From the IMG/VR virus record IMGVR_UViG_3300044693_000183: 64,000 bases of DNA. One strand, given 5' to 3'. The stretch is from an uncultured virus (IMG/VR IMGVR_UViG_3300044693_000183) (lineage: Duplodnaviria; Heunggongvirae; Uroviricota; Caudoviricetes). Every line of letters starts with the position of its first letter. Within the stretch, counting starts at the first letter, position 1. A program made the position numbers and the translations under genes. Positions 47 through 62,761 of this stretch are shown one piece after another. Below the pieces are notes generated by a model. That model was not told the origin of the DNA and ran no database searches. It saw only the letters and a list, made by a program, of their open reading frames with translations.

Positions 47-1135
47 CTACTGCCGAACGAAGCCATTAACGGCGGCGCCTGGCCAAAGCTGGGTTGCCTT
101 CGCGGACGTTCCGGCACAGCCGAGGACTTTCCCTGTGGTGTCCTGCGCGATCCACGTGTCCGGCGTTGGGGCCGGCGGGGCGAGTGTGTCCAGGTTGATC
201 GCGTGCGGATCCAGCATCGCCTGACCGCCGTTCGTGAACGACGCCAGCGCCAGCGGGTTCGGGGAGTCCTGCCACGCCTGGAAACCCACAATGTTCGGGT
301 ACTGCGCGTGCAGGCCCGCAGTCAACTGGGTGGCGTCCCACGACGCGGTTCCGTCCTGCTGGTTCGGCCCGGCCTCGAACAGCAGCACAGGCACCCCGGC
401 GGCGAGCAAGGTCTGGTAGTCGTCGTTGAACTTGTTGGGGAACAGCAGGTTGTCCGTGTACAGGGATGCGCCCGCGAGGTCGTACTGGCCAGCTGGCGGG
501 CGAGCGTAGTCCAGGCTCGTGTACCAGGACATGCCCGTGGACCATCCGATGAGGACACCGGGGCACTGTTGGCGGATGTAGCTGATGAGGTCTGCCCATA
601 GGGCGCGGTAGCCGGTGGCGGAGCGGGTTGGGTTGGTGTAGTCCATTGACCACCAGAACGTCAAATTGGATACCTCGTGTAGCGGCCTGAACACGATAGG
701 TGATCCCTTGGGGAGTGCTTGGAGAAACTGCGCCATGCTCGTCTTCATGGCCGCCCACCGAGACTTCGCAGTCGAGGCCGGCGCCGAAGGCAGCAGCAGC
801 GTCAAGTCATGCTTCGACCCGAACGCGTTCGACACCCACGCCGAGCTGATCGTCTGAGTCGAGCTCCACGGGTCCGGCGGGTGGATGTCCAACACCGCGA
901 TACCACCACTGTTGAGGTGCTGCGAGATCACCGCGATCTGCGAGGCACGATAGGCGGTGGTGTCCTGCGAGCCAACGAGGATCGTCGTCCCCAACATCGC
1001 CGGCACTTTCGGCAACGGCGCGATCAGCTCGGCATAGGAGTCGTTGGCGTCCTGATACTCCGGCAGGTGCTGGCCAGTCAGGATGCCCTGGCCCGTGATG
1101 GACTGCAGGTAGGGCACAACATCGGTTGATTGCAT
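47..1135 (-). CDS. Glycoside hydrolase family 26-like (beta-mannanase-like)
   Basis: IVFRPLHE..FWW acid/base motif, DLAGASLY, PVLLFEAG nucleophile motif, FQAW. Confidence 0.75.
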   Translation of the reverse strand: MQSTDVVPYLQSITGQGILTGQHLPEYQDANDSYAELIAPLPKVPAMLGTTILVGSQDTTAYRASQIAVISQHLNSGGIAVLDIHPPDPWSSTQTISSAWVSNAFGSKHDLTLLLPSAPASTAKSRWAAMKTSMAQFLQALPKGSPIVFRPLHEVSNLTFWWSMDYTNPTRSATGYRALWADLISYIRQQCPGVLIGWSTGMSWYTSLDYARPPAGQYDLAGASLYTDNLLFPNKFNDDYQTLLAAGVPVLLFEAGPNQQDGTASWDATQLTAGLHAQYPNIVGFQAWQDSPNPLALASFTNGGQAMLDPHAINLDTLAPPAPTPDTWIAQDTTGKVLGCAGTSAKATQLWPGAAVNGFVRQ

Positions 1136-1145
1136 AGGTACTCCG

Positions 1146-1180
1146 CGGTGTGGGGTCGGGCGCTACCTGGTCAGGGCAGC
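1146..1180 (-). promoter_or_regulatory. CUGACCA-loop hairpin plus CCCACACCG leader element
   Basis: GCTGCC-CTGACCA-GGTAGC then CCCACACCG just upstream of the GH26 start. Confidence 0.7.
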
Positions 1181-1242
1181 AGTGTGATTCAGCGTACGGC
1201 AGCCTTACGCTCGGCGTATTAGCCTGCGCCTTGGCAGCTCGC

Positions 1243-1273
1243 GAACGAGAAACGGCCCCCAGTTGGGGGCCGT
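1243..1273 (-). terminator. Intrinsic terminator
   Basis: 9-bp stem ACGGCCCCC/GGGGGCCGT followed by TTTCTCGTT on the minus strand. Confidence 0.65.
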
Positions 1274-1361
1274 CGGGCTAGGGCTACTGACCCTAGCGGG
1301 GATGCGGCAACTATACATCGGCGCAAGAGCACAGGCGACCGATGCGGTGCTCATCGCCAGG

Positions 1362-1679
1362 TCACGCCACCACCTCCGTCTCGACTGAACCGCCACCGAG
1401 CATCTGCCCCACCTCCAACAGTTGGGCAGCAAGCCCCCGCACCCTGGCAGCCAACGAGCCACCCATACACGGGCCGGGAATCCACCCCTCAGCCATGGCA
1501 ATAGCCACCGCGTGCACCGGATTCTCTGCGCCGATCTTGCGGCACAAGCGGCCCGACCTCTGCCGCACGCTCGCGTGCTCTATGAACAACTGCTTCGCGG
1601 CTTGCTGATACGTGTGGCCCGTCGACAGGAGTTGCAGCAGGGCCAGGTCACCCTGGGATAGGGGGCAGATGTCAGGCAC
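1362..1679 (-). CDS. LuxR-type HTH regulator
   Basis: LSQGDLALLQLLSTGHTYQQAAKQLFI...KIGAENPVHAVAIAMAEGWI; GTG start overlaps the WhiB stop. Confidence 0.8.
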   Translation of the reverse strand: MPDICPLSQGDLALLQLLSTGHTYQQAAKQLFIEHASVRQRSGRLCRKIGAENPVHAVAIAMAEGWIPGPCMGGSLAARVRGLAAQLLEVGQMLGGGSVETEVVA

Positions 1680-2118
1680 AGTCCACCGCCATCGCGTCGA
1701 GTTGCCGCCAGATCGACACGCACCGGCGCTGTGTGCAGCGCTCGCCCGCGGGAACATCGGCCGCCAGCATTGCTGTGTCTGGGTCTGCGGTCATGCCCGC
1801 GTTGCATACGCTGTCACAGGAGTCGGTGACCACGTGCCACTTGTGGATCTTTTTGCGGTGTTGGTGTGGGGCCATAGCGCGGGTGGTCTTCGGATCCACG
1901 GTGACGCCGATGGCCTGCTGAGAGCTCAACGCTTCCCGTTCGGCCTGGTCCAGGCCGCCCCAGATTCCCTGCTCCTTGCGGTCGATGCCGGCCCGTAGGC
2001 ACGGGTCCTTCAGGGGGCAGGTGGCACAGATGGAGCGTGCCCGCGTGATGTTGCCTGGATCTGTGGAGAACCACAGGTCCGGCTCGCTGCGGCAGGGAGC
2101 GTCCTCGGGTCTGCTCAC
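1672..2118 (-). CDS. whiB: WhiB-family regulator with extra C-terminal Cys/His domain
   Basis: C..PDLWF, CxxC, C, GIWGG motifs. Confidence 0.9.
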   Translation of the reverse strand: MSRPEDAPCRSEPDLWFSTDPGNITRARSICATCPLKDPCLRAGIDRKEQGIWGGLDQAEREALSSQQAIGVTVDPKTTRAMAPHQHRKKIHKWHVVTDSCDSVCNAGMTADPDTAMLAADVPAGERCTQRRCVSIWRQLDAMAVDCA

Positions 2119-2387
2119 GCCACCTCACCGCCCGGAACCGGCTCGCTCGTGGTGACGTTGCGGATCGTGCGGATGTCTTCCTCGCGGGCCTGGAGCTGCA
2201 GCGTCCAACAGCCGTCGATCATGCCGTGCATCCGAATGATCTTCGCGGAAGTGGTCTGCACCGCCACGAAAGCATCGAGCATCTGGTTGGAGGGCCACGT
2301 GACCTGGTGAGCCTGCACGTACTCCACGTGACCGCTCATCCATGTGATCTCGTAGGTCCTCAAAGGACCGTAGTCGGAGTCACTCAT
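2115..2387 (-). CDS. Hypothetical protein
   Basis: ORF coupled to the WhiB gene; upstream leader element and RBS. Confidence 0.75.
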   Translation of the reverse strand: MSDSDYGPLRTYEITWMSGHVEYVQAHQVTWPSNQMLDAFVAVQTTSAKIIRMHGMIDGCWTLQLQAREEDIRTIRNVTTSEPVPGGEVA

Positions 2388-2407
2388 GGGAAGGTCTCTT
2401 CCTGTTG

Positions 2408-2521
2408 CGGTGTGGGTGTGGTCGGTGCTGTCTGGTCAGGACAGCGGGGTTGGTCAGCGTAGGACTGGTCAGGTCTCTACGCATCCCAGGATGCGCTACA
2501 GATCAGGGCTGGTCGAGGCCC
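2408..2521 (-). promoter_or_regulatory. Cluster of CUGACCA-loop hairpins plus CCCACACCG
   Basis: GCTGTC-CTGACCA-GACAGC (2427-2445), GAC-CTGACCA-GTC (~2463-2476), GGGC-CTCGACCA-GCCC (~2506-2521), CCCACACCG (2408-2416). Confidence 0.7.
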
Positions 2522-2561
2522 AAGGGGATAACGGTCTAGAAAGCGGAGGTGCAGTGCCTCG

Positions 2562-2954
2562 CTAGCGTCCCTTCGCGAGCGTGCACGTGCAGGTGCCCTC
2601 CGTGAAGGGCTCGTACCCGTGCTCCCGCATCACGGCGGCATGGGCACGGCTGTAGATCGTGGGACCAGCACAGCGCTCATCGTGACCGGCCGCGCGGTGC
2701 CGGCGCCGCGACTCGTGAAAGACAGCGGTCGCCTTGCAGTGGATGTCCTCGTAGTTGCCCCGGAACCGCCCCATGTTCGCCGAGTCGTAGATCCGCATCT
2801 CGGCGTCCTCGAAAAGCTCTTCGTCGGTGAGGTCGCGGAGCTTGGCGATCCAGGTGTCGAGGTCGGCTTTGGTGGACGGGTGGGCCGCCTTGTACTCGGC
2901 CGCGCCGCCGTGGCCGATGAGGTCGATGAGTTGGGCGTCGGTCAGGGTCTTCAC
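2562..2954 (-). CDS. Hypothetical protein
   Basis: Protein-like ORF with GAAGGAG RBS. Confidence 0.75.
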   Translation of the reverse strand: MKTLTDAQLIDLIGHGGAAEYKAAHPSTKADLDTWIAKLRDLTDEELFEDAEMRIYDSANMGRFRGNYEDIHCKATAVFHESRRRHRAAGHDERCAGPTIYSRAHAAVMREHGYEPFTEGTCTCTLAKGR

Positions 2955-3012
2955 TGGTTCTCCTTCGTCTTCTTGGTCCGCTGGGTTACGGGCTGGTTCT
3001 GGTAGTGCTTCC

Positions 3013-3210
3013 TCAACACCCCGAGGCTTCCTGGCTCACCGCTTCGGCGATCTTCGTCAGGTCGTCGCTGGTGTAGGTGTGCGGGTGCTTCGCCAGCTCA
3101 CGCAGCACGGCGACCGTGGCTGCTATCGCCTTCCGCTTGGCGGCCGGGCCGTATGCGGCTCCCTGTGTCGCAAGGGCCGCGGACACCCACAGCTTGTTGA
3201 GGTCCTTCAC
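3013..3210 (-). CDS. Hypothetical protein
   Basis: GTGA overlap with upstream gene, GGAGG RBS. Confidence 0.7.
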   Translation of the reverse strand: MKDLNKLWVSAALATQGAAYGPAAKRKAIAATVAVLRELAKHPHTYTSDDLTKIAEAVSQEASGC

Positions 3211-3410
3211 TTTTCCTCCTTGGCTTTCTGTTGCCCGTAGCGCTTGCGCAGAGCCTCACCTGTCACTGCCACCTCACCCTTGGTTCGGTCGCGCAGCTCC
3301 ACGGAGATCCGGTTCCACGACAGACCCCTCTCCCGTTGGATGGCGATCCAGTCGGGGAGGGGCCGGCGGAGCCTTTTCGCCGCGAGGAGCTCGTTTGCGG
3401 TGGGGTTCAT
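3207..3410 (-). CDS. Small HTH-like DNA-binding protein (Cro/repressor-like), leaderless
   Basis: RERGLSWNRISVEL..VTGEALRK HTH-like pattern; ATG 7 nt after a TACAGT -10 box. Confidence 0.65.
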   Translation of the reverse strand: MNPTANELLAAKRLRRPLPDWIAIQRERGLSWNRISVELRDRTKGEVAVTGEALRKRYGQQKAKEEK

Positions 3411-3417
3411 GGCTCAA

Positions 3418-3465
3418 ACTGTAGTTGGCAACTGGGTTGCGGGCAAGTGGGTTGCGGCGTACTGT
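3418..3465. promoter_or_regulatory. Overlapping divergent promoters (candidate genetic switch)
   Basis: Leftward TTGCCC-17-TACAGT (3446-3418); rightward TTGCGG-17-TACTGT (3437-3465); direct repeat TGGGTTGCGG x2. Confidence 0.7.
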
Positions 3466-3485
3466 GGTGTTCGACCAAAGCACCA

Positions 3486-3519
3486 CCGGGCCTGACCAGC
3501 CCAGACCACACCCACACCG
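3486..3519 (+). promoter_or_regulatory. CUGACCA-loop hairpin plus CCCACACCG leader element
   Basis: CCGGGCCTGACCAGCCC then CCCACACCG then AGGAGG RBS. Confidence 0.75.
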
Positions 3520-3536
3520 AACACAGGAGGCACACA

Positions 3537-3822: not shown

Positions 3823-4383
3823 GTGAGCGAACAACGCAACTGGCGTGACTGCCACACCTGCCGGCAGATCGCTGCCGAGCAACGCGCCAGCACCGACGCC
3901 CAGCAGCGGTGGATAACGAGCAGTGTGTGGGCCGCACTGGACGGGGCCGTGCCGCGTGAGGTGCTGCTGGCCATGAGCATGGCCGAGCTGCACGCTACCC
4001 ACCACGTCGAAGACCGCAACACCACGGACTCGATCATGATCACGGGCGTGCGGGAACTCGTCGCGCACTACACCACCAAGACGGTGCCGCGCGACGAAGC
4101 CAACGACCGAGCAACAAACCTGTGGAACTCGTGGCAGGCCGAGGTCAAGCAGATCCGCGAGACCGCAGACGCTGAGGCGCGAGCCCAGTACGAGGCTGAC
4201 CTGCGTGAGGCGCAGACCCGACTTTTGATCGTTGATGCCCTGCGCCACCAGGCCGGAACACGCAAGACCATGCAGGCCGCAGATGTTCGTGCCGCCCTGG
4301 ACTGGGTGCGTGGTGAGGAAGTTCCTGCATTCGCGGTCGAGCACTACCGGAAGATATCCGGCGTGCAGCGAGGCGCTGCGTGA
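3823..4383 (+). CDS. Hypothetical protein
   Basis: GGAGG RBS, N-terminal CxxC, helical protein. Confidence 0.75.
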   Translation: MSEQRNWRDCHTCRQIAAEQRASTDAQQRWITSSVWAALDGAVPREVLLAMSMAELHATHHVEDRNTTDSIMITGVRELVAHYTTKTVPRDEANDRATNLWNSWQAEVKQIRETADAEARAQYEADLREAQTRLLIVDALRHQAGTRKTMQAADVRAALDWVRGEEVPAFAVEHYRKISGVQRGAA

Positions 4384-4474
4384 CTTATCACCGCAGGTCA
4401 GCAAGGGTATACGGGCAGAATCGTTACCCCATAACACGTGACCACAGTAGACCGACCACATAGACTGAACACCT

Positions 4475-4565
4475 GGAGCTGACCACTCCGACCGGGCCTG
4501 ACCAGCCCTGAAACCAACCCAGTACCGCGAGGCGGGGACCACGCCGAGCGGGAACTGACCAGCCC
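4475..4565 (+). promoter_or_regulatory. Tandem CUGACCA-loop hairpins in the leader of the recombination operon
   Basis: GGAG-CTGACCA-CTCC (4475-4489), GGGC-CTGACCA-GCCC (4494-4508), third CTGACCAG at 4555-4562. Confidence 0.7.
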
Positions 4566-4591
4566 ACATCGCAAGCGATAGGACACCGACC

Positions 4592-6040
4592 ATGGCTAGT
4601 TTGAAGACACGAAAGCCCACAGGACGCGCGTCTTGGCCGCTGATTCTCCTCGCCGGGGAAGCGAAGACTGGCAAGACCTGGGCTGCCGCCGAGTTTACTG
4701 GTGACGAGCGCGTGGGCCGATGCTTCTGGATCGACCTTGGCGAGGGTTGCGCTGACGAGTATGGCGCCGTTCCCGGGGCTGACTACGAGATCGTTGAGCA
4801 CAACGGAACCTGGGTCGACATCATCGAGCAGGTCGAGGCCGTTCGCGACGTGGCCCGTGCCGAGCTGGAAGCGGGCAACAAGCCCGTCCTTCTGGTCATC
4901 GACTCGATGACTGCTGAGTGGGCAATGCTCACGGAGTGGACGAACAACCGGGCCAAGCGGTCGAAGTCCAACCGGGCTCTCCTTGCTGACGACCCGGACG
5001 CCGAGATCGACGTCACCTCAAACTACTGGAACGACGCGAATTCCCGACACAACCGGCTGATGAACATCCTCAAGACGTTCCCCGGGATCGTGGTTCTCAC
5101 CGCGCTGGAGACGGAGAAGACCCAGTTCGGCCCCGGCGGTAGGCCGTTGCAGAACGCCCCGAAGGTGGCGAAGCCGGATGGGCAGAAGCGTCTGACCGCT
5201 GACGTCAACATCTGGATCCGGCTGTCACTGACCGAGGAGCCGGTGGTCGTCAGCATGCGGACGGCGAAGCGTTCAATCCGGCCCGGCAAGGACAAGCCGG
5301 AGCCGTGGCCCGACTTCACCCTGGGCAAGCTCGTGTTCGAGTTTCTGGGCATCGACGCGGGTACGGCAGAGGTGCGAGCCATGCCGGTGTTAAACGCAGA
5401 CCAGGTGATGCCGGACGAGAAGCCCCAGCCGGACGAGCCCGACTTTGAGTTGATGGAGAAGCGCGCGAACGACGCCGCGCAGATCCTCGGCGATGCCCAG
5501 AAGGCCACGACACCAGCCGCGTTCAAGGAGCTGTGGGACGAGGCCAACGGCAAGCGGCTGATGGGCTGGCGGATCGGCGAGAAGACGCTGGAGAAGTTGC
5601 TGCGCGCCGAGGCCGACCGTATCAAGAAGGCCGACGCCAAGCCTGCTGCGCAGGTGGAGAAGCCGAAGCCGGCCGTGCAGGAGAAGCCCGCTGCCGCGGA
5701 GCCCGTGAAGCCCGCTCCTGTGGTGAACGCTGGCGGTTTCTTGACCGCAGTCGGTGCGGCCGTGCAGGCAAACCGTAAGGGCCTGATCACTCGGGACCAG
5801 TACACCCAGCTCGGGAAGCTGTACACGGGGAAGCTGCGACTGCCCAATCCGCAAACCCAGTTGCGTCTCGCCACGAGGCTGCTGGAGTTGCCGGCGCCGT
5901 TGACGGATCCGAAGCAGTTGACGGCCGACCAGGCGGTGAAGCTGCTGAAGGAACTGGAGAACATTGCTGAGGCTGGTGAAGCGGCTGACGCGTTGATCGC
6001 CGGGATCTTGCAGCGCACCGACGAGCCCGTTTCCGCCTGA
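4592..6040 (+). CDS. AAA ATPase, Sak4-like single-strand annealing/recombination protein
   Basis: Walker A GEAKTGKT, Walker B LLVIDS; lies upstream of ssb. Confidence 0.8.
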   Translation: MASLKTRKPTGRASWPLILLAGEAKTGKTWAAAEFTGDERVGRCFWIDLGEGCADEYGAVPGADYEIVEHNGTWVDIIEQVEAVRDVARAELEAGNKPVLLVIDSMTAEWAMLTEWTNNRAKRSKSNRALLADDPDAEIDVTSNYWNDANSRHNRLMNILKTFPGIVVLTALETEKTQFGPGGRPLQNAPKVAKPDGQKRLTADVNIWIRLSLTEEPVVVSMRTAKRSIRPGKDKPEPWPDFTLGKLVFEFLGIDAGTAEVRAMPVLNADQVMPDEKPQPDEPDFELMEKRANDAAQILGDAQKATTPAAFKELWDEANGKRLMGWRIGEKTLEKLLRAEADRIKKADAKPAAQVEKPKPAVQEKPAAAEPVKPAPVVNAGGFLTAVGAAVQANRKGLITRDQYTQLGKLYTGKLRLPNPQTQLRLATRLLELPAPLTDPKQLTADQAVKLLKELENIAEAGEAADALIAGILQRTDEPVSA

Positions 6041-9115: not shown

Positions 9116-9819
9116 CGGATGTGATTGACCGCTTGGGGTGTCCTGCGACGAAGCATGGCACGAGGCACTACCGGTGGGCTCACGGCTGTGTGTGCGAGGA
9201 CGCCAAGCGAGACGCGAACCGGTACTACAAGATGCGCCGGGCAGGGAAGACAAAGCCGGGCGTTGTGGATTCTCTGCCGACACGGCGCAGGATCCAAGCG
9301 TGGATGGCGGTCGAGTGGACTACGGCGGACATCGCCAGATGGCTTGGGTACCAGTCGCCCCAGGCGGTCACGTATCTCCTGTCGACGCCACGCGTCCTCG
9401 CGTCTACGGCGGAGAAAGTGACGAGGGAGTTTTCGGCGCGTTCGCTGCAGGTACCGCCAGACACGCCTAGGTCCCGTCGGTGCCGGTTGCTGGCACAGCG
9501 TAAAGGGTTCGCTCCCGAGCTCGCGTGGGACAACATCGATGACTTGAGTGAGCGGCCCTCGCTGGGCACGAGGTATGCGAAGCGTGGCGATGAGGTGGAT
9601 CAGGCGTGCGTATCAGAAGCTATGGCTGGTCGGCGCCCGTTCAAGGATCTGACGAGGGCTGAGGCCCGCTTGGTGGTGCGGCGGCTTGTGGAGCAGCGGT
9701 TTTGGTCGGATGCGCGGATCGCCGAGTGGCTGCGCACGACGGACCGCACGGTCCTTCGGACCAGGAAGGCGGCTGGTATCGAGGCGGTGCCGGTGACGCG
9801 GCAGCTGGACGCGGCATGA
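9112..9819 (+). CDS. Phage DNA-binding protein, paralog of 8426-9115
   Basis: HGT..GCVC, RRRIQAW..HTH, WSDARIAEWL..RTVLR. Confidence 0.75.
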   Translation: MTDVIDRLGCPATKHGTRHYRWAHGCVCEDAKRDANRYYKMRRAGKTKPGVVDSLPTRRRIQAWMAVEWTTADIARWLGYQSPQAVTYLLSTPRVLASTAEKVTREFSARSLQVPPDTPRSRRCRLLAQRKGFAPELAWDNIDDLSERPSLGTRYAKRGDEVDQACVSEAMAGRRPFKDLTRAEARLVVRRLVEQRFWSDARIAEWLRTTDRTVLRTRKAAGIEAVPVTRQLDAA

Positions 9820-10313
9820 AGCGGCGGAGTTTGTACCCGTCGTGGGATTCCTATCTGGATCGTCTGGTGCCGAGGCTGCTGGAGATCGCAGTGGCGGTGC
9901 ATGACGAGGGACCGGACGAGGTACGGCGGCTGGTGATGCAGGCCCGCCGGATGGCGGCGCCGCGCGGGGTGGACCCGGTGGAGGGCCTGGTCGTCGGGCT
10001 GGCCGCGCTGATCGACGTGACCAAGTCACCGGCGGAGTTGTTCGCGGAGGTTGACAAGTTGGTGCCAGTGGCGGGCGTGTGGAAGGGGCTGCGGCGGCCG
10101 CACAGGGCGGTGCCGGTCCGGTCGGAGGTAGTCCGGGCTGTTCTTGCGGGGGAGCAGCCGTATGAGGTGCTGCGGGGGCGAGAACGGGGCGTGGTGGTGC
10201 TGGCGTGGCAGCGTGCCCAGGTGCCGATGGAGGAGATCATGCGGCGTACGGGGCAGACGCGGCGGCAGAATCTGGAGCGGATGGTGGCGCGGGCGGCGGC
10301 GTGGGCGGCGTGA
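9816..10313 (+). CDS. Hypothetical protein
   Basis: ATGA overlap with upstream gene. Confidence 0.7.
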   Translation: MKRRSLYPSWDSYLDRLVPRLLEIAVAVHDEGPDEVRRLVMQARRMAAPRGVDPVEGLVVGLAALIDVTKSPAELFAEVDKLVPVAGVWKGLRRPHRAVPVRSEVVRAVLAGEQPYEVLRGRERGVVVLAWQRAQVPMEEIMRRTGQTRRQNLERMVARAAAWAA

Positions 10314-11500
10314 GACTTTCGGGCAGTGGTTCCCGTTTTTTGCGCATGGTTTTCAATGCCGAGCGGGTTGCCAGGTTCTTGTAAGGAAATTGACAGGATC
10401 CTCTGATGAAAAGCTTTCCCGCATGCGTATGGCACGCCCTCGTGCTCAAAAGCGACCATCACCAAGAAGCCCAAACGGGTGATGCTCGTTGCTATAGGTT
10501 GAATGGTTATGTAACGCTCGGTGGCGAGGTCGCGATACCTCAACTAGCCAGGAAGACCGGTGGACCACCGGCTCTACCAGGCGAAACCCACACCGCGGTA
10601 TTGAACACAGGGCAGGGAGGGAGCGCATGTTGACCACCGACGCTTCCCCCGACCCGACCCAGACGATGACATACTGTGACCGCGCAGATACTTCCTGCGG
10701 TACACACTCAGAATCGGGTCGGCGCTCGGCGTTAGCCGGACGAAACTGCGCGCAGCGTTTCTGACCAAAACACTGCGACCCTCCCCGCCCTGTGCCAGCA
10801 TCTACAGATGCGGACACGCCGATGACTGGTTTGCTTAACACATGGCAACTAGTTAGTGTGCCGTGTAGCAGAAGCGCCCCGGAGGCGGGCAGAGGCGAGG
10901 CAGGGGACCAACCCGTACTCGCGCCAGCGAGGAGTGACCCCCAACCTATCGTGGGGAGGCGGCGACCAAACCGCCGACCCCGGTTGGGGCACTTCCCGCT
11001 AGCCCCGCCGTCCGGAGCTAACCCTCTCCTGTGGCGCCGGGGGGTTGGACGCTTCCCACACCGCGGCCGGGCAGTCAGAAGCCCGGCACTTGATGAACGT
11101 CCATCCTCCCGAGTCGGCGGCAGTAGTCACGTCGACGACTGCGCCACGATCGAGGGCTGGGTACATCCTATGCGCTGGAGTCTCGGTCCTGTCACCAGCC
11201 TAGGTCTTTGCCCCAGTTGCGACACTTCTTAACCCCATCGCACCTGCGTGGTGTTTGCCGCGCAGGCGTTACAACGGTAACAGGCTGCTTGTCTTGGACG
11301 CTAGACGGCGGCGCGCGGTGGGGTGGGTGCTTGGTTTAGGACAGATGGGCCACAGTGACTGCTCCAGCGCGCCCGCCATGCCGTTGACCTGCGGAAACAT
11401 GGTTCTCTACAACGCTTGTAGAGATGCGGTAGACACGCCAAAGACATGTTATGGCCATGTCTCGGAAATCTTACGGAGAGAGCATCCCGGAAACGGAGAT
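10314..11500. ncRNA. Candidate large structured non-coding RNA or origin region
   Basis: No convincing long ORF; dense nested stems; class not recognised. Confidence 0.4.
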
Positions 11501-11796
11501 GACGTGACACGCCCGGTGTGGGCGACACGCCTGCACGAATGGCTCATCGATGGCCAATACACCCGCCTGGAACCGCCAGAGTGTGCTAGGCGGCGGGTGG
11601 GGGAACGGCCAGGGTGCCTGTCTGCGTTCTGGGTCCGCCGGGGTTAAGGCCCCGTGTTTTTCGGGCACGCCCTGCGCGGCGCGTGCTGCGCCGTCGACTG
11701 CCTGCCGGGGCCTGGGGTGGCGGCCCGCTTGGGCGGCCCGCTACAGCCGTATGGGCCCGGCTGGCGCCTGTCCGGGGCCGGCATGACACATCATGG

Positions 11797-11825
11797 TTGA
11801 CTCAAGCAACGCGCTGGCGTAAAGT
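11797..11825 (+). promoter_or_regulatory. Housekeeping-sigma-type promoter
   Basis: TTGACT-17-TAAAGT; shares GGCGTAAAGTAACT with the promoter at 21511. Confidence 0.75.
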
Positions 11826-11843
11826 AACTACCGACCGAAAGAC

Positions 11844-11875
11844 CCGGGCCTGACCAGCCCAGACCACCCACACCG
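11844..11875 (+). promoter_or_regulatory. CUGACCA-loop hairpin plus CCCACACCG leader element
   Basis: Near-identical to 3486-3519. Confidence 0.75.
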
Positions 11876-11897
11876 AACACCAAAGGACGTCGCCGCC

Positions 11898-12092
11898 ATG
11901 GCAGACAACCTCCGCGCACGCGGACTCAAACTCACGCGCCAGGTCGAGGACATCATCCTGCCCGTGCTCAACGAGCACCCTGAGGAAATCACCGGCACCG
12001 ACCTCCTCGCCCTCGCCGTCGCAGCGCAGACCTACGTGCTCGCCAGCGGTCTCAGCGGATCCGGCACCACGCCGCCCACCATCACCGACTGA
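11898..12092 (+). CDS. Hypothetical protein
   Basis: AAGGA RBS downstream of promoter. Confidence 0.7.
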   Translation: MADNLRARGLKLTRQVEDIILPVLNEHPEEITGTDLLALAVAAQTYVLASGLSGSGTTPPTITD

Positions 12093-13110: not shown

Positions 13111-13265
13111 TGCCGGCCCTGGAGTCTCCGCGGGACGGCGAGCTCGGCGTCCGCCCGGACTGCCCCGAGTACGACCTGCCGGCCGGCCACGATCCTCCTG
13201 CCGCTGGCCCTGACCGGCCAGATCCAGCTCCCGCACCACTGAACAACAGCCAGAAAGGACACCTG

Positions 13266-13714: not shown

Positions 13715-14818
13715 ATGACGCGCATCGAAAAGCTCACCGCCGAGCAGGAACACCAGCTCGCCACCGTCCGCGACGAATGGATCGCCCATGGCCTGTCCAC
13801 AGTGCCCGCGCACCGCGCACTGGCTGTCGCCGGCGTCAATGAGGCCTACCAAGCCGCCGGCCTTGAACCACCCCGCATCGTGATCTGGCTCGACTCGCCG
13901 ATGGCCGGTGCGATCGGCGCTGCCTACCTCAAGCACATCCTCACCGATCCGGCTCAGGTCGGGGATCAGGTCCGGGCTCAGGTCTGGGATCAGGTCTGGG
14001 ATCAGGTCCGGGCTCAGGTCGGAGCTCAGGTCGGGGATCAGGTCCGGGCTCAGGTCTGGGATCAGGTCCGGGCTCAGGTCCGGGCTCAGGTCGGAGCTCA
14101 GGTCGGGGATCAGGTCCGGGCTCAGGTCTGGGATCAGGTCCGGGATCAGGTCCGGGCTCAGGTCCACCGCGCCTGCTGGGGCCAGCACGACTACTGGCTG
14201 TGCTTCTACGACACGTTCAGGCGCTTCGGGTTGCCTGGCACCGACCGCGTCAACGGCCTCGTCCAGACCGCCCAGAACGCCGGCTGGTGGTGGCCCCACC
14301 GCGGTGCCGTTATCCTCACCGAACGCCCCGTGGAGATCCACCGCGACAACCAAGGCCGGCTACACTGCGAGACCGGGCCTGCGATGCGCTACCCCGACGG
14401 TTTCGCCATCTACGCCTGGCATGGCACCCGCGTGCCCGCAGACCTTGTCTCGCCTGGCTGGGACGCGAAGCGCGTGTTCGCTGAGGAGAACACGGAAATC
14501 CGCCGGTGTGCCGTGGAAAAGATCGCCGCCACTGACGGGTGGGATCGCATCGTCGCCGAGCTGGGCTGCCCCCAGGTCGGGTCCACCGTGGACGACCCCG
14601 GCAATCCGGGTCAGACGCTGCGCCTGTACCGGCTGGAAAATGTCTACGACGAGCCAGTCGGGCTGCTGCTGATGACGAACGGCACCGTCGAGCGTGATGG
14701 CACCCGTCGCGAGTTCGGCGAGACCGTGCCCGCTTCCATTTCTGATCCCGTGGCCGCCGCGGCGTGGCAGATCGGGATCTCCCCCGCCAACTACCGCCTC
14801 ACTGCACGACGCACGTGA
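13715..14818 (+). CDS. DUF6745-like protein with internal 4-aa repeats
   Basis: [40 protein letters not shown] motifs. Confidence 0.85.
13952..14164 (+). repeat. In-frame 12-bp tandem repeat, about 18 units
   Basis: Unit G(C/A)TCAGGTC(C/G/T)G(G/A) encoding (A/D)QV(R/G/W). Confidence 0.95.
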
Positions 14819-18120: not shown

Positions 18121-18248
18121 GCCAGGTGGCTCGCGGCACACAACCACGTCATTCCTCTCGAAACCGCCCCGCCCACACTGCCCGACGGCAGCACCTTTTG
18201 GAGGACACTGTGACCGCCTAGTCTGTCTTGGACCAACGAGCTTCACCA

Positions 18249-18283
18249 CCGGGCCTGACCAGCCCACGACCGATCCCACACCG
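18249..18283 (+). promoter_or_regulatory. CUGACCA-loop hairpin plus CCCACACCG leader element
   Basis: Exact 17-mer CCGGGCCTGACCAGCCC, CCCACACCG, then AGGAG RBS. Confidence 0.75.
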
Positions 18284-18304
18284 CTACCGCATAGGAGACC
18301 TCCC

Positions 18305-19906: not shown

Positions 19907-19993
19907 GGTGTGCGGGGTGAAACACGGAGGGGGCGGGCACCGATATGCCGGTGTCCGCCTCCGACCGGGGGCCAAGCACAAGGGCCGCTGACC

Positions 19994-20482
19994 ATGGCTA
20001 ACGCCACTCCCGCACCGCCGTTCCCGCAACCCCAGGACACGCCACCCCGTAAGCCCCGCACCGGATTGAAAGTGCTTGGGGGCATCGTGGGTGGCGTGTT
20101 CGTGTTCTTCCTCGGTGTCGCCGCTGGGGGCGGTGGCGGTTCGACTGCGGCGTCTGCGACGAAAACCGTCACGGTCACCGTGCCGGGGGCGGGGCAAACC
20201 ATCACCGTGCAGCCCACCACCACCCAGCCGGCTGGCCCGAAAACCACGGTGTCGGATGGCACGTTCCACGTGGGCGACGACATCACCGCCGGGCGGTGGA
20301 AGACCGATGGGCCGTCAGCGGACAGCGTGACCCACTCCTGCTATTGGGAGCGGACCAAGGACGACTCCGGAAGCTTCTCGTCGATCATCGCGAATGACAA
20401 CATCTCGGGGCCGACGTCGCTTACCGTGAACGCGGGGGAGTTCGTGAAGTTCTCGGGTGGTTGTACCTGGAGTCACGCGTAG
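19994..20482 (+). CDS. Membrane-anchored extracytoplasmic protein
   Basis: TM helix, Thr-rich linker, DGTFHVGDDI..CYWER..IIAND..GCTW domain. Confidence 0.8.
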   Translation: MANATPAPPFPQPQDTPPRKPRTGLKVLGGIVGGVFVFFLGVAAGGGGGSTAASATKTVTVTVPGAGQTITVQPTTTQPAGPKTTVSDGTFHVGDDITAGRWKTDGPSADSVTHSCYWERTKDDSGSFSSIIANDNISGPTSLTVNAGEFVKFSGGCTWSHA

Positions 20483-25280: not shown

Positions 25281-25304
25281 CTCCGATAAGCTGACATATC
25301 GGAG
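25281..25304. promoter_or_regulatory. Candidate lox-like recombinase site
   Basis: CTCCGATA-AGCTGACA-TATCGGAG: 8-bp inverted arms with asymmetric 8-bp spacer, 17 nt before the recombinase ATG. Confidence 0.55.
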
Positions 25305-25321
25305 GGAATTAACCGGACATC

Positions 25322-26380
25322 ATGGACCCCACTCGTGACCTTGTTCCCGCCACACCCAGCGGCCAAGTAGTCGCCCCCAGTGAGGCGCTAGCCGCGCTCG
25401 ACGCAGCGGCCACGCAGTACCTCGAAGACAACCAAGAAGACAACACCAAACGGTCCTACGAGACGGACTGGAAGGTGTGGCGGCAGTACTGCGGCTTGAT
25501 CGGCATCCCCGAGACCGCGAACACCCTCGGCGCGCTGGTGGGGTTCGTCAAGTGGCTCCAGGACAAGCCCCCCACTGCCGAGGAGCTCACCCTCAACCCA
25601 GAGGCACTCCCCCGGCCGCAAGCACCGTCCACGATCGATCGTCGCCTTGCGGGTGCCGTCGTTGGCCTAGCCAGGCGCGGTTGCGAGCCGTCCAGTGAGG
25701 CCAAGAAGGCAGCGCGGGAAGCACTGAAGGTCTACCGCAAGGAGTTGACCAAGGCAGCCGTGAAACTCGGCCGGGGACGCGCCCCGGCCGCGAGGGTTGG
25801 CCATCTGCACCGCATCGCGGCCGTCTGCCCGGACACCCTGGCAGGCCGTAGGGACAAAGCGCTCGTCCTCCTCGGGTTCCGCATCGCCGCTCGTTCTGCG
25901 GAGCTTGCCAACCTGATCGTGTCGGACATCGAGGACGCCGACGGACATGGGATCGTCGTCAACATCCGATTCGGCAAGACAGGCGGCCGACGCGTCCCGG
26001 TGCCCTTCGGCAAAGACCCAGACATCTGCCCCGTGCTCGCGTGGCGCGAGTGGATAGCCGCAGCTGGCTACGGCGAAGGTCCCGCCTTCGCGCAGATCGC
26101 CAAGAACGACCAGCTACGCCGCGACCTAGACGGCAACCTGCGGCCTCTGGGGCCTCGTGGGGTACGCGGCGTTATCGACCGGGCGGCGGTACGGGCAGGC
26201 GTAAGTCTGCACCTGACAGGCCACTCCCTCCGCTCTGGGCTTGCTACTGAAGCCCGGCGAGCCGGCCACGACAACAAGACCATCGCGAAGATCACCGGCC
26301 ATACCCCCACATCTGCGGTGCTGTACGAGTATTTCCGCGAAGTCGATGAGTGGGTTGAAGCCCCCGACAACATCCTCTGA
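25322..26380 (+). CDS. Tyrosine recombinase, Cre-like subtype
   Basis: NTKRSYETDW N-domain, RDKAL..ARSAEL, GKT, GHSLRSG, TGH..Y catalytic motifs. Confidence 0.92.
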   Translation: MDPTRDLVPATPSGQVVAPSEALAALDAAATQYLEDNQEDNTKRSYETDWKVWRQYCGLIGIPETANTLGALVGFVKWLQDKPPTAEELTLNPEALPRPQAPSTIDRRLAGAVVGLARRGCEPSSEAKKAAREALKVYRKELTKAAVKLGRGRAPAARVGHLHRIAAVCPDTLAGRRDKALVLLGFRIAARSAELANLIVSDIEDADGHGIVVNIRFGKTGGRRVPVPFGKDPDICPVLAWREWIAAAGYGEGPAFAQIAKNDQLRRDLDGNLRPLGPRGVRGVIDRAAVRAGVSLHLTGHSLRSGLATEARRAGHDNKTIAKITGHTPTSAVLYEYFREVDEWVEAPDNIL

Positions 26381-34931: not shown

Positions 34932-35852
34932 CTAGTGGTAGGCGGGGTACCAGGACACGGCGAGGCTGGCGGTGGACGAGTAGGAGCTGGCGGAGAACGC
35001 GAGTACATAGGCGGTGGCGGCGGAGAACGAAAACCACTGGGATGTCGTCAGGAACGGGCGCCGATCCGAGCCGTTGACCTGCACGTACCGGTTGAACGGG
35101 CTCGTGGAGATCACCAGCTGGTCTCCGCTGTTCAGGGTGGACGCGTACTGCAGAACCTGGCCTGTTGTGGAGCAGGTGATCGTGGGGTTCGTGATGCCCG
35201 TGCCGGCGTTGACGGTGAACGTGGGCCACGTCGGCGCGGTGCCGCCGTTGAGGACGGCGACTGTGCCGTTCGACACCGTGGTGCCCCAGTTCAGGCCACC
35301 CCCCGTGGACCAGTCCAGGCCACCCCCGGTGGACCAGTCCAGGCCGCCAGTAGCGGACGGCAGGAACGTGGACGCCTGCTGCAAGGTCGAGGAGTACTTC
35401 GTCGGATCCGGTGCCGCCAACTGGATCGTCCACGCGCATGTCAGATACGCGATGGGGGTCATGAGGATCTGGGCGTCCAGCTCGACCTGCGCGGTGAGGG
35501 TGCCGGTTTCCTCCGCGCACGACAGTGTGTACAGCTGAGCCGGGTCCCCGCACACCGCAGCCAGCTGGTGTTGGGCGGTGCGTAGCGCGGTGATGGTGGG
35601 GGCGGTCATCGTCCCCTCCAGGGAGATGATTCGTTCTCCCCGGAAGTTCTGCGACCGGTACGAGCCGGTGGCGCCGGCCTTGTTGGTTCGCGCCGGCTTC
35701 GGCGGGGCCGACGCGAACCACCCGGTCTCTTTGGTGAGGATCCAGTCGACGCCATTCGCATCGGTCGTGTTGATCGTCACCTGTGGGGTGCCGGACGAGT
35801 CGCTGATCGTGTACTGCGGCCCGTACAGCACCTGGTTGTAGACGAACGACAT
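34932..35852 (-). CDS. Distal tail protein
   Basis: Follows TMP; IQLAAPDPTKY, NGGTAPTWP; GGLDWST repeats. Confidence 0.8.
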   Translation of the reverse strand: MSFVYNQVLYGPQYTISDSSGTPQVTINTTDANGVDWILTKETGWFASAPPKPARTNKAGATGSYRSQNFRGERIISLEGTMTAPTITALRTAQHQLAAVCGDPAQLYTLSCAEETGTLTAQVELDAQILMTPIAYLTCAWTIQLAAPDPTKYSSTLQQASTFLPSATGGLDWSTGGGLDWSTGGGLNWGTTVSNGTVAVLNGGTAPTWPTFTVNAGTGITNPTITCSTTGQVLQYASTLNSGDQLVISTSPFNRYVQVNGSDRRPFLTTSQWFSFSAATAYVLAFSASSYSSTASLAVSWYPAYH

Positions 35853-51487: not shown

Positions 51488-51964
51488 TCAGCCGCTATCC
51501 GCGAACGGATTCCACTCCTGCTCGGCCGGCTTCTTCCCCCCCGCTATGCCGATCGCGCCCTCACTCGACAAGGTCAAGCCAAACTCGCGCAGCAAGAACC
51601 GCACCTGATCGGCGGCCTTCTCCTCGACGATCACCCAGCCGGCCTTGACGTCCTTGTTCTGGATGCCCTTGTCGAGCAGACCGCGATCCTTGCGAATCTC
51701 CACAGCCATACGCCACCGAGAGTAGGTCTCGCACAAGACACGCAGCGCGAACTCGTCGATCTCCCGCAGCAGATCCACCCCAGCGAGACAGGCCGTGACC
51801 TTGGCCCACATGTCCTGCCCGAAGTCGTCCAGGTCATCAGGCATGGGGGGTGGTTTGCGCTCGAACTCCGGCGTAGTCTCAATGGGCCGCCCACCACTGT
51901 CGAAGCCCTCGCGGCGTCCGCTGATGGCCTTCAGGTGGGGCGGGAGCTTCGTCGGACCCGACAT
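51488..51964 (-). CDS. terS: Terminase small subunit (P27-like)
   Basis: GP..P..LK, PP.PDDL..W, LCETY, EFGLT. Confidence 0.9.
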   Translation of the reverse strand: MSGPTKLPPHLKAISGRREGFDSGGRPIETTPEFERKPPPMPDDLDDFGQDMWAKVTACLAGVDLLREIDEFALRVLCETYSRWRMAVEIRKDRGLLDKGIQNKDVKAGWVIVEEKAADQVRFLLREFGLTLSSEGAIGIAGGKKPAEQEWNPFADSG

Positions 51965-56425: not shown

Positions 56426-56752
56426 CTACGCGACCTCGCTCCACGATGGCAGCTGAGGGTCGTTCGTGCTGGGAATGAGACCAACACACATCACCGTGTT
56501 CGTGGGGCTGCCCCCGTACAGGCAGACACCCAAGTACGGCCTGGCCGCAGTCAGTGGGCGGTTCGTTTCGGCGAGGACAACATCCACGGTGATCGAGCCG
56601 TCCTCGGCTTGGGTGAGGGTGGCGGTGCCGATCGGGGCGCTGGTGTCGTAGTTGACAGTGAACGGCACGGTCGCTGGCACCGACCACGCGGTGGGGTTGA
56701 TGCCATAGATGGCGCCAAACGCGGCGCGGAACGCAGTGCCCTGGATGTGCAT
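56426..56752 (-). CDS. Hypothetical protein
   Basis: Abuts the repeat protein stop. Confidence 0.65.
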   Translation of the reverse strand: MHIQGTAFRAAFGAIYGINPTAWSVPATVPFTVNYDTSAPIGTATLTQAEDGSITVDVVLAETNRPLTAARPYLGVCLYGGSPTNTVMCVGLIPSTNDPQLPSWSEVA

Positions 56753-58726
56753 CTATGTCACCACGCTTCCCGCTGACCAACTGGAGGGTTGAAGAGATGC
56801 AGCCCAGTTTGTGGATATGCCGCCCACGGTGAAGTCCTTCGGCGGTGGTAGTACCACTACGTCGGTGGCGGCTGCCGTGTCCATGCAGGTACGCAGCAGC
56901 GTCATGCTGGTACGGGACGCGGCGTCCGCAGCTGCGGCGGTGTCGGGGATGATGTGAACTAGTTGGATGCTGCGTGTCACGCTGTCGCTCACCGCGGCCG
57001 TGTCTGTGCACGAGCGCGCAGAGCTGTGTGTCCGCGACGTGGCATCCGATGCCGCAGCGGTGTCGGTGGTGGCACGAGCAAGCAAGACAGGAGTCCTGCC
57101 GGCCGTGTCGGTGGCGGCTGCCGTGTCCGAGACAGCCCTGTGTTCCGTGTTGGCTGAGGTGACCGTGTCTGCGGCTGGCGCGGTGTCACTGGCGGTACGC
57201 GCCAGTGGCATAGTGCGCGTCACGCCATCAGTAGCAGGGGCACTATCAGCAGTGGGCCGTGAGGAGACGACCACGCGCTGCACGCTGTCCGTAGCTGGTG
57301 CTGTGTTCGCCGCGCCCCGGGCGAAGCTCGCGACGCGCACCACCGCATCCGACGCGGCAGTAGTGTCCGTGACCGCACGACCACCCGCGAGCAGCCGCAC
57401 AACCGAATCCGTGGCGGGCGTGGTGTCGGGGACGGAGCGGCTAGCCGACTCGACCGATGCCGCCGAGTCCAGCGCTGGCGCAGCATCGGCGATGGCGAGA
57501 GTGACGCGGGTCGTGCGGGTAACACTGTCCCCAGCTGGGGCTGTGTCAACCACAGACCCGGCGTGGGCGGTGGACCACGCGACCATGTCCGTAGCCGCAG
57601 CGGTGTCGCTCGTGGTCCTCGACAGGGACAACGGTGGCCGGGTAACCGTGTCTGTGGCGGGCGCCGCATCGCTGGTAGCTCGCGGCGAGGACGTTGACCG
57701 TGTGACTGCGTCGCTGGCGGCAGCAGTGTCCGCGGCTGATCGGGTGGTCGTGATCGTGTGCACCGCAGCGTCGGTTGCTGCGGCAGTGTCGCTCGCCGCC
57801 CGAACGTGGGCGGTCGTGGCTGTGACGCTGTCCGTGGCGGGTGCCGCATCACTGGCAGCGCGGGCGGCAGTGGTGGCGCGAGCAACAGTGTCCAGCGCTG
57901 GTGCCGTGTCGCTGGTTGTACGCGTCAACGGCATGGCACGCGCAACAGCATCGGCGGCCGGGGCCGTGTCGGCTGCTGTCCTAGTCCCCGAAGTGGTCGA
58001 AACGACCGTGTCCGTGGCCGCAGCGGTATCGGGGATTGTGCGCGTCAGCGAAAAGGAACGCACCACGCCATCGGCAGCGGGTGTCGTGTCGGTGGCGGAC
58101 CTGTTGCCGGATACAGCCGAGGCGACCGTGTCCGCGGCTGGGGCTGTGTCGGCTGCTGTCTGGTGGAGATTGATGGCGCGCGCCACCGTGTCCACAGCAG
58201 CAGCGGTATCGGCAACTGCGTGCACCAGGGCGATGGAGCGGGTTACCGCATCCGTAGCCCCAGCAGTGTCAGAGACAGTGCGGGCGGCGGTGATGGTGCT
58301 GGTGATCGCGTCGCTAGCTGGGGTGGTGTCCGCAGTCGACCGAGCAGCGAGCCCCAGAGTGCGGCTCACCGTGTCCGATGCGGCAGCAGTGTCCGGGCAC
58401 GCTCTGTTGGAGCTGGCGGACCGGCTCACCGCATCGGTTGCCGCGGCGGTATCCGATGCTGTCCGGCTAGCGCTGATCGAGCTGGCGACACTATCTGCGG
58501 AGGGTGCCGTGTCTGAGATGGACCGGGCGGCCGCCACTGCCCTGCTGACACTGTCGACGGCGGCTGCGGTGTCTGACACGCCCTGCGTGAGTGCCGCAGC
58601 ACGGGACACAGCGTCAGTAGCCGACGCAGTATCCGCCGCGGTAGCCACATACAGCACGCCCGGTTTAGGGCCAGCTATGAGGACATGCTTGCCGGGGTAG
58701 GAACGGCCGAGGCGTGCCATCGGCAC
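56753..58726 (-). CDS. Thr/Ala/Asp-rich tandem-repeat protein, putative fibre
   Basis: About 26 repeats of 23-24 aa, consensus R..DTA.A.D.V.R; GGAGG RBS. Confidence 0.85.
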   Translation of the reverse strand: MPMARLGRSYPGKHVLIAGPKPGVLYVATAADTASATDAVSRAAALTQGVSDTAAAVDSVSRAVAAARSISDTAPSADSVASSISASRTASDTAAATDAVSRSASSNRACPDTAAASDTVSRTLGLAARSTADTTPASDAITSTITAARTVSDTAGATDAVTRSIALVHAVADTAAAVDTVARAINLHQTAADTAPAADTVASAVSGNRSATDTTPAADGVVRSFSLTRTIPDTAAATDTVVSTTSGTRTAADTAPAADAVARAMPLTRTTSDTAPALDTVARATTAARAASDAAPATDSVTATTAHVRAASDTAAATDAAVHTITTTRSAADTAAASDAVTRSTSSPRATSDAAPATDTVTRPPLSLSRTTSDTAAATDMVAWSTAHAGSVVDTAPAGDSVTRTTRVTLAIADAAPALDSAASVESASRSVPDTTPATDSVVRLLAGGRAVTDTTAASDAVVRVASFARGAANTAPATDSVQRVVVSSRPTADSAPATDGVTRTMPLARTASDTAPAADTVTSANTEHRAVSDTAAATDTAGRTPVLLARATTDTAAASDATSRTHSSARSCTDTAAVSDSVTRSIQLVHIIPDTAAAADAASRTSMTLLRTCMDTAAATDVVVLPPPKDFTVGGISTNWAASLQPSSWSAGSVVT

Positions 58727-58767
58727 CTCCTAGCGCGTTCTGACCGGCAAGGTTAAAGCAAGCTTTG

Positions 58768-60922: not shown

Positions 60923-60949
60923 GCTCCGCCCCTTCTTGCCGTGGCGGGG

Positions 60950-61170
60950 TTTGTGGCTGGCCGGACCGGTGTGGGATGCCCGGCCAGCCACGATGGGACC
61001 CGGTTGGCTTCAGTTGGCCCTGAAGTTACAGCGAGTACATTACCTATCACCGTGGGTTCAGGGAGCACTGAAGGTGGCCAACCGCGCACCACTGGTCAGG
61101 CAGCACGCGACAGTCCACAACAGCGACAGAAGGAAGGGCCTGCCTGCCCAGCGCCGCTACTGGGCAGGCA
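60950..61170 (-). promoter_or_regulatory. Structured late leader: stacked hairpins including CUGACCA and CCCACACCG loops
   Basis: Stems at 61143-61168, 61083-61109, 61002-61083, 60953-60991. Confidence 0.6.
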
Positions 61171-61176
61171 GGAGTC

Positions 61177-61649
61177 TCAACAGGACACCGACTCCAGGAC
61201 TGCGCGGTCATCGAGGCGGGCCACCATGTGACTCGGGCCCGCGTCGAGTACCTCCCGGAGGTGGGCGCACAGCCAGTCCCCCTCAGCCACGAACGCCTTG
61301 CATGGGATGCAGTAGCCGACCGCGTGCCGGCTGGGCTGCGGAAGGCGCTTGCCTTTCATCGCCTGCTCGGCGGCGGTCACCGTCAAGACGTGCTCGCTGC
61401 TCAACCGTCCTCCTCCATGCGCTCGTGCCTGGTGGCGTCCTGTCGGCGGACGGTGTCGTGGAGGCCGGAGATCATGCGCTTCAGCTCGGCGTGGCCCTGC
61501 GCCAGCTCGGCGTGGCGGCGCTTGTGGACCCGATGCCACACCCACGCCAAGAGCGCAACGGCCGGGGACCAGATGAGACTCGCGACGAGGTTCGGGTAGA
61601 CGCTGTCCCAGCCGGGCCAGATCGCGGCCCACAAACCGGGCCAGTCCAT
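61177..61649 (-). CDS. Two small ORFs (61401-61649 membrane protein; 61177-61404)
   Basis: GGGAGG RBS; YPNLVASLIW TM segment; TTGA overlap. Confidence 0.6.
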
Positions 61650-62660: not shown

Positions 62661-62761
62661 GGTCAGGGCCCTCCCGAAGGGGTTACGCGGTGTGGGTGTT
62701 GTGCTGGTCAACACCGAGCGTAACCCCTCGGGTGGTCCGATAGGGGAAGCAACCCGCCAAA

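Follow-up and report, generated by a model that had tools for sequence, protein, structure and literature searches.

In an uncultured actinobacterial-type phage, the predicted fold of an uncatalogued large RNA points to a molecule that is probably a functional transcript, and this RNA is tied to the leaders of the early genes by two elements that both share, a CUGACCA hairpin and a CCCACACCG box. Both elements are early-leader signals across the genome, which is a new observation. Because the RNA carries several motif copies with no real gene behind them, its most likely role is that of a decoy or scaffold for a putative leader-binding factor, a reading of the model that we prefer only tentatively; transcription, the factor, its binding, and the regulatory outcome are all steps that we infer. 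The large, structured RNAs described from phages, GOLLD and ROOL among them, lack an assigned function in the available part of their description (PMC12286853), and actinophage start-associated repeats have been described without a known reader (available part of PMC3203893). One genome here joins the two puzzles, with the open loops of a large RNA matching early-gene leaders. The window, to which coordinates refer unless a sister segment is named, is the whole 64,000-nt stretch of DNA that was analyzed.

Genome context and the non-coding gap

The window covers most of the genome of a temperate, actinobacterial-type siphophage, of which about 7 kb probably lies outside it, judging from a 71,199-nt record that carries a window protein. 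Terminase, portal, capsid, and tail genes are encoded on the - strand, and the + strand carries Sak4-like, SSB, HNH, WhiB-like, RusA, and thymidine kinase genes; a tyrosine recombinase is encoded at 25322-26380, and the phage has two WhiB-like genes. The non-coding gap spans 10314-11897 (1584 nt) and is the largest in the window, which bears out the description of this stretch in an earlier note, made from the sequence, as the largest gene-poor one. It lies between four DNA-binding or uncharacterized genes on its 5' side and a small early-gene run on its 3' side. A codon model built from 19 clear genes gave negative scores to 30 of the 31 gap open frames of 30 or more codons, the one exception reaching +1.4. 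Pfam searches at E 0.1 returned no match for 13 gap open frames, and no protein relatives of two long ones came up when their translations were scanned against contigs from viruses, metagenomes, and genomes, so the decayed protein genes that the earlier note had named as a refuting outcome are not borne out in the frames tested. An apparently larger gap at 56958-58767 proved on inspection to be a repeat-rich gene. The Ala/Thr/Asp/Ser repeat gene at ~56750-58720 (- strand) was overlooked by the codon model, and another repeat-rich gene at 13715-14818 (+ strand) encodes a protein with short QV-rich tandem repeats.

Relatives of the gene upstream of the gap (9816-10313) were found at 29-50% identity, at six of six loci, in genomes of the presumed host family, and we take the genera concerned to belong to Pseudonocardiaceae; this host assignment is based on distant relatives of one gene, is uncertain, and may be wrong. 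In a sister phage record the counterpart of the upstream gene (L001 6705-7202) encodes a protein ~48% identical, and the flanks are ~99% identical. On the sequence, the allele swap is recent and ends at the edge of the non-coding region. The gene family comprises at least 40 clusters with no name attached. A fixed pairing of the region with this family was rejected, as relatives with downstream DNA have genes there.

Folding strength and family searches

Modelled as + strand RNA, the core at 10545-11375 was far more stable than its shuffles (z -9.56; none of 20 equally stable), compared with z -3.55 for the - strand RNA and -6.34 for DNA (20 shuffles each), and the comparison with shuffles that the earlier note had proposed thus came out in favor of structure. 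For the shorter interval 10540-11300 the two strands were nearly equal (z -5.93 for + and -5.56 for -), so the strand bias stems mostly from the 3' part. The 600-nt tile at 10545 folded 63.8 kcal/mol below its own shuffles (5 shuffles), against a mean of -2.9, a standard deviation of 9.8, and a lowest value of -24.1 kcal/mol in 70 control tile-strands (5 shuffles each). Tiles of 250 nt at 10751 and 11251 ranked second and third among 255. Confident pairs numbered 329 on the + strand (26 G-U) and 217 on the - strand (12 G-U). Pairs with p>0.7 per 800-nt window gave no separation (210, 205, and 208 on the + strand of the region; controls reached 237).

The earlier note had extended the structured region over 10314-11500. 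The core of that extent is folded, but the first 230 nt (10314-10545) showed no structure beyond chance, and the structure probably reaches 11639-11660. All 11 stem pairs that it had named were recovered at or near their places; GGCTGG/CCAGCC is present but does not form a confident helix in the longer fold, and GCAGT/ACTGC is present but overlaps GCGCCAC by 2 nt.

That the gap holds no functional RNA, but rather clustered control sites that act as DNA, a signal in single-stranded DNA, or an element in decay, is the least probable of the readings weighed here. Stoperator-like boxes, WhiA-type GACAC sites, and palindromic operators were considered as candidate sites. The strand does fold well as DNA (the z of -6.34 above), and the gap holds 4 of the 11 GACACGCC copies in a phage with two WhiB-like genes. 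Like stoperators (part of PMC9283540), the boxes lack symmetry, have an orientation, and lie between genes, and GACAC is the WhiA motif (part of PMC10243135). However, a folding outlier of 6 standard deviations is not predicted by double-stranded sites, and neither are the + strand advantage in pairs or the compensating stems around a fixed loop that are described below; the Pfam and relative searches of the open frames argue against a decayed gene. For 11380-11530 the DNA-site reading may well be true.

At gathering score, the Rfam 15 covariance models, which we take to include GOLLD, ROOL, OLE, Csr/Rsm, tmRNA, RNase P, intron, and ribozyme models, gave no match in the window, and a relaxed search of 10200-11900 gave only two (E 3.3 and 6.1). 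ARAGORN found no tRNA or tmRNA in the region. These searches agree with the earlier note, which had recognized no tmRNA, RNase P, intron, or ribozyme core, and the RNA belongs to none of the families tested. Readings of the HDV, hammerhead, group I/II, or TIGR kind were dropped after comparison by eye with consensus features. The single ARAGORN call, a tRNA-Leu at 35214-35288, lies antisense within a minor tail gene 24 kb off and is probably false.

Predicted anatomy of the RNA

The predicted domains are listed with the other features in Table 1. The 5' end of the RNA is an early-leader element with no credible gene behind it. Besides the CUGACCA hairpin, domain D1 contains a long rod, an internal loop of which includes GACCA (10632). 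Its 45-codon frame is the only ORF preceded by an RBS-like run, which sits in the 15-bp helix; no homologues of the frame were found, and its GC by codon position (0.51/0.67/0.67) compares with third-position values of 0.86-0.95 in four short genes. The RNA also has one run of six G and six of four or five. The 3' extension includes palindromes at 11404-11424 and 11442-11462, three GACACGCC repeats, and an antisense box copy at 11514-11522, and could represent DNA sites instead of RNA. No convincing promoter for the large RNA was found, the sole upstream TANNNT (10495) having no -35 and being changed in the sister; the RNA may be transcribed by read-through from upstream, past the weak hairpin at 10320-10341. 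The structured RNA proposed in the earlier note is thus supported by the folding excess, the + bias, the non-coding content, the 5' leader element, and the 3' terminator, but not by a clear promoter.

Table 1. Features of the large RNA, its surroundings, and the early-gene leaders, in order of position.
Feature	Coordinates	Strand	Remark
Early-leader element, 7-bp stem	1140..1186	-	
Early leader, two CUGACCA hairpins and box	2402..2480	-	
Early leader: CUGACCA hairpin, box, then RBS	3480..3525	+	
Leader of Sak4-like gene: three CUGACCA (two in hairpins), one-mismatch box	4470..4571	+	
Weak terminator-like hairpin, 4 bp and T run, after upstream gene	10320..10341	+	By eye; under scanner threshold
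Structured RNA core, domains D0-D5	10545..11375	+	z -9.56 vs. -3.55; outlier against 70 control tile-strands
D0 hairpin (10547-10582) and single-stranded CCCACACCG box (10587-10595)	10547..10601	+	Early-leader copy at 5' end
D1, closed by 15-bp helix burying a Shine-Dalgarno-like purine run	10606..10794	+	Predicted fold
45-codon open frame within D1, stop codon in CUGACCA loop	10627..10764	+	Probably not a gene
CUGACCA hairpin with 7-nt loop, loop identical to early-gene leaders	10752..10776	+	Predicted fold
D2, long hairpin with several G-U pairs	10808..10866	+	Predicted fold
D3, three-way junction: GACCAA loop (10906-10911); nested rod capped by CGACCAAA loop (10963-10970)	10879..11015	+	
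D4, multibranch: second CCCACACCG box (11055-11063) in internal loop; AGUCAGAA loop (11073-11080)	11022..11156	+	
D5, 9-bp closing helix; four-way junction (11232-11324), G-U-containing hairpins	11172..11370	+	Predicted fold
3' extension, weaker folding excess	11375..11634	+	UGACCU-loop hairpin 11381-11394
Intrinsic-terminator-like hairpin and U run	11639..11660	+	Likely RNA 3' end
Sigma-A-like promoter of next operon (TTGACT-17-TAAAGT; 11797-11825) and leader element	11797..11881	+	Separate from RNA
Degenerate leader element before gene 13266	13198..13244	+	Model R1 E 0.0038, untrained copy
Early-leader element	18243..18289	+	
Early-leader element, one-mismatch box	19976..20023	+	
Second structured leader, ~45 nt before gene 60922	60925..61110	-	CUGACCA loop on 12-pair stem, rod
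Early-leader element, UUGACCA variant	62682..62723	-	

Leader signals across the genome

CCCACACCG occurs 14 times in the window, against 1.94 expected. The two boxes that the earlier note had seen are present at 10587 and 11055, but they are not peculiar to the region: seven copies lie 9-27 nt before a start codon, an eighth lies ~45 nt before one, three are in or beside the region (one antisense), and three are antisense inside the tape-measure gene. Before early genes, the box precedes a separate RBS. The CUGACCA hairpin listed in the note is also there, its identity with the early leaders having been missed.

Ten of the 26 CTGACCA sites in the window have a closing stem of 4 or more bp, compared with 2.3% of random 7-mers, and by the window gene list all ten are intergenic and on the sense strand. 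The 7-nt CUGACCA loop sits on stems that differ between copies and compensate, usually with CCCACACCG and then the RBS on its 3' side. From this constant loop on an exchangeable stem, we infer that the element is recognized as RNA. In an alignment of ten leader copies, 81.6% of cells were paired and two-sided changes occurred at all six pairs; the paired fraction was reached in none of 500 shuffles, and slid partners gave 26-43%. The alignment overstates the support, because the copies were partly chosen for their stems and three lie in one duplicated cassette. A strict 4-bp stem was present at none of the seven CTGACCA sites in an extra segment of the sister, two of them box-bearing. Elsewhere, two of ten sites were stem-closed in a further segment of the sister, and one of 13 was in a provirus that shares only the capsid module. 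A model of the leader element (R1) matched 10562-10601 (E 0.0045), a copy outside its training set, and also recovered further untrained copies in sister segments.

Wider scans with these patterns were set aside. In viral contigs, a leader-pattern scan gave 29 loci, of which the 25 that did not belong to the sister record resembled chance matches. In genomes, the pattern gave scattered matches in 147 of 401 and model R1 matched 24 of 150 (both tallies include genomes flagged unpublished), and both were uninformative; 10 of the 13 R1 loci examined, from 15 fetched with L158 and L163 left out, fell within ORFs.

In the structured leader at 60925-61110, each motif has its own hairpin loop, the box lying in the loop of the long hairpin. 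The interval 60925-61400 folded with z -4.82, and the leader itself is the top 250-nt tile of 255. It precedes a long leftward gene run into the virion genes and is 98.5% identical in the sister. A glycosyl hydrolase family 26 gene (47-1135, - strand) has an early-type leader as well. Sister segment L007 contains identical promoter-leader cassettes at 4330-4415 and 5480-5560, each before a small gene and with an inverted repeat over the -35. A TGACCTGCGGAAAC-type word occurs in the window at 11385 (+) and 52096 (-), recurring upstream of the small terminase gene. Beyond the window (loci L059, L070, and L071 included), the same type of word was observed beside tRNA-like fragments in two host-family genomes and near the right end of phage Brujita, ~70-100 bp away from it.

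The SAS/ESAS repeats of Cluster K mycobacteriophages are likewise asymmetric and oriented before non-structural genes, and the 13-bp SAS consensus includes the Shine-Dalgarno sequence, 3-7 bp from the start; the available part of that account mentions no large RNA (PMC3203893). In contrast, the leader element described here differs in sequence and forms, on the 5' side of the RBS, a hairpin with a fixed loop and a varying stem.

Leader motifs displayed in the large RNA

Among the 5-mers of the predicted fold, GACCA ranks first in fully unpaired copies, with four of its five open against an unpaired rate of 4.6% for all 5-mers in the RNA, and none of 20 words of the same composition was unpaired. 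A 5-mer of any kind with four unpaired copies arose in 6 of 317 shuffles and in none of 25 genomic windows. GACC occupies 4 of the 14 hairpin loops, and any 4-mer in four loops was seen in 7 of 317 shuffles. Both sense CCCACACCG boxes are mostly unpaired in the fold.

In the mechanism that we favor, a + strand non-coding RNA would be made in the early program, with a length of ~830 nt, or ~1115 nt if it ends at the terminator. It would fold into five or six compact domains that keep the GACC(A) loops and CCCACACCG boxes open. A putative RNA-binding factor, from phage or host, would read the loop and box in early leaders before the RBS and so control translation or antitermination, and the large RNA would titrate or organize this factor, thereby timing early expression. 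Against a decoy stand the low site density for a sponge, the degenerate loops, and the lack of strict stems in the sister's extra segment. The exact 7-mer is found in one loop only, the others being degenerate (GACCAA, CGACCAAA, UGACCU), and all five GACCA copies lie within the first 456 nt, with none over the next 660; the decoy reading therefore leaves most of the RNA unexplained. A search with one candidate small binding protein matched only unnamed clusters.

CsrB/RsmZ sponges, which present GGA in hairpin loops, are likewise non-coding RNAs that repeat in loops a motif of target mRNAs near the RBS. The motifs here are GACC(A) and CCCACACCG instead, GGA being present in 1 of 14 loops, and the RNA is far longer, has few sites, is phage-encoded, and has no Rfam match. 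Repetition of the leader motif in unpaired loops, as in the CsrB/RsmZ type, was seen in the predicted fold only. CsrB binds CsrA, according to the available part of PMC5109040.

A wider reading, doubtful but worth stating, is that of an undescribed actinobacterial-phage system in which a leader code before ~12 early genes is coupled to a ~1-kb ornate, multivalent decoy or scaffold RNA. In such a system, the RNA would switch the early program or the lysis-lysogeny decision. If true, the start-associated repeats of actinophages would gain a mechanism, and a large phage RNA would gain a function open to testing.

An ornate RNA of GOLLD/ROOL type, forming a compact particle, perhaps a multimer, held together by loop-loop and A-minor contacts, is an unlikely explanation, in which the repeated loops would serve RNA-RNA contacts and not protein sites. 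The length (830-1115 nt), the multi-junction fold, and the phage location fit this class, in which GOLLD often exceeds 800 nt (as described in part of PMC12286853). One loop pair, 10759-10765 and 11074-11080, is complementary over 7 bp when flanking stem bases are counted. The best complement within the loops is 5 nt, however, which 41 of 150 shuffles equalled, so that this candidate kissing loop did not reach significance; there is also no Rfam match at any threshold and no tRNA cluster nearby, and the match between loops and leaders is left without explanation.

A cis-acting attenuator or antitermination module (put- or nut-like) within a long rightward early transcript is very unlikely. It would switch read-through at 11639-11660, and translation of the 45-codon frame may be linked to this switch. 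In its favor, the 5' arm and loop of the terminator have a perfect 9-nt complement at 11228-11236, and the duplex is calculated at -21.7 kcal/mol against -10.0 for the hairpin. An attenuation switch requires far less than an 830-nt core, however. The downstream operon also has its own sigma-A-like promoter and leader, and 11232-11241 is already paired in D5 (p 0.98). Lambdoid nut (boxA/boxB) and HK022 put combine a hairpin loop and a single-stranded box after early promoters, as does the leader element, but the sequences differ, the leader element is repeated before single genes by the RBS, and no N-like protein was identified. The resemblance of a hairpin and single-stranded box after early promoters to boxB/boxA (part of PMC2724277) counts for the attenuator.

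Homologues and the sister phage

The sister record carries the region at 98.6% identity and was the sole homologue found. It differs at six positions in 10545-11660: two changes turn G-C into G-U, one would add a pair (it faces a C mismatch), one breaks a pair, and two are unpaired, so that, of the four changes that lie in a helix or opposite one, three preserve or add a pair and one disrupts one. Those at 10928 and 10930 (D3) keep or gain pairs on the + strand, and that at 11652, in the terminator, retains its pair as G-U. In the predicted fold, the changes fit a + strand RNA and are too few to be covariation. The BLASTn comparison with related phages suggested in the earlier note has thus yielded a near-identical sister, but no diverged homologue for covariation.

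No other homologue appeared by blastn of the region against phages and plasmids, by a 21-nt pattern scan of viral contigs, or by BLAST against 26 viral records, 5 genomes, and 5 capsid-related records. BLAST against 401 genomes of the presumed host family (the family of G031), with only two candidates scored per genome, gave seven short matches of 26-46 nt. In a complete provirus with a capsid 84% identical, no folded gap was present among the three largest of eight gaps. A literature search found no publication on the large RNA or the leader motif. A published set of viral candidate RNA models numbers 10,006 (PMC10690425); those from IMG/VR are 29-151 nt long, and a sub-domain of the large RNA could be among them. 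In Rhodococcus phage WC1, non-coding regions are the most-transcribed loci (part of PMC10986025).

The replication-origin alternative

The earlier note had offered a replication origin as its second reading. In that case, the folded transcript would form an R-loop and prime DNA synthesis of an extrachromosomal prophage (ColE1-like or non-RepA cluster A-like), with the leader signals controlling only synthesis of the primer RNA. We regard this as somewhat unlikely. There is precedent, as non-RepA cluster A prophages replicate from ~600 bp, a sufficient length, that expresses a non-coding RNA beside parABS (described in part of PMC7157519). The RedRock, Alma, and Gladiator origins are likewise structured non-coding regions in temperate actinophages (same source); these three fold well too (z -3.2 to -3.9 for the RNA strand), and TGACCTG and GACACGCC words are common to cluster A origins and the present region. 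The G6 run and the six shorter G runs would also suit an origin RNA, and the tyrosine recombinase is nearest, among phages, to that of the plasmid-phage pZL12 (42.5%; plasmid recombinases 39-43%), with a perfect 8-8-8 inverted repeat just upstream (25281-25304).

The parABS context and the sequence likeness were not found, however. ParA was absent from three related records (0/1, 0/2; AAA_31) and from the window ORFs scanned, and the genes flanking the region, which lies within early genes, are neither parA nor parB, ~7 kb of the genome probably being outside the window. The three origins are dissimilar to the region, with best E values of 0.36 (BLAST) and 2.7 (profile); this comparison covered three of five published origins, which are 41-71% identical among themselves. 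Elsewhere, the sister record carries DnaB genes and what is likely a fragment of an initiator. The cumulative G-C peak at 11736 is a terminus-type sign, confounded by gene composition. If the region nevertheless encoded an origin RNA, RNA-primed prophage replication would no longer be confined to cluster A, and actinobacterial genetics would gain a new replicon.

Some minor observations concern the same parts of the two phages. The cumulative G-C curve is highest where the region ends and lowest at 51820, near the terminase genes, for which gene composition may account. Sister segment L007 carries, at 629-3460, a DnaB gene followed by a PLD-nuclease-DnaB fusion. Upstream of the recombinase, the inverted repeat resembles a lox/res-type site, a hint of a phage-plasmid lifestyle.
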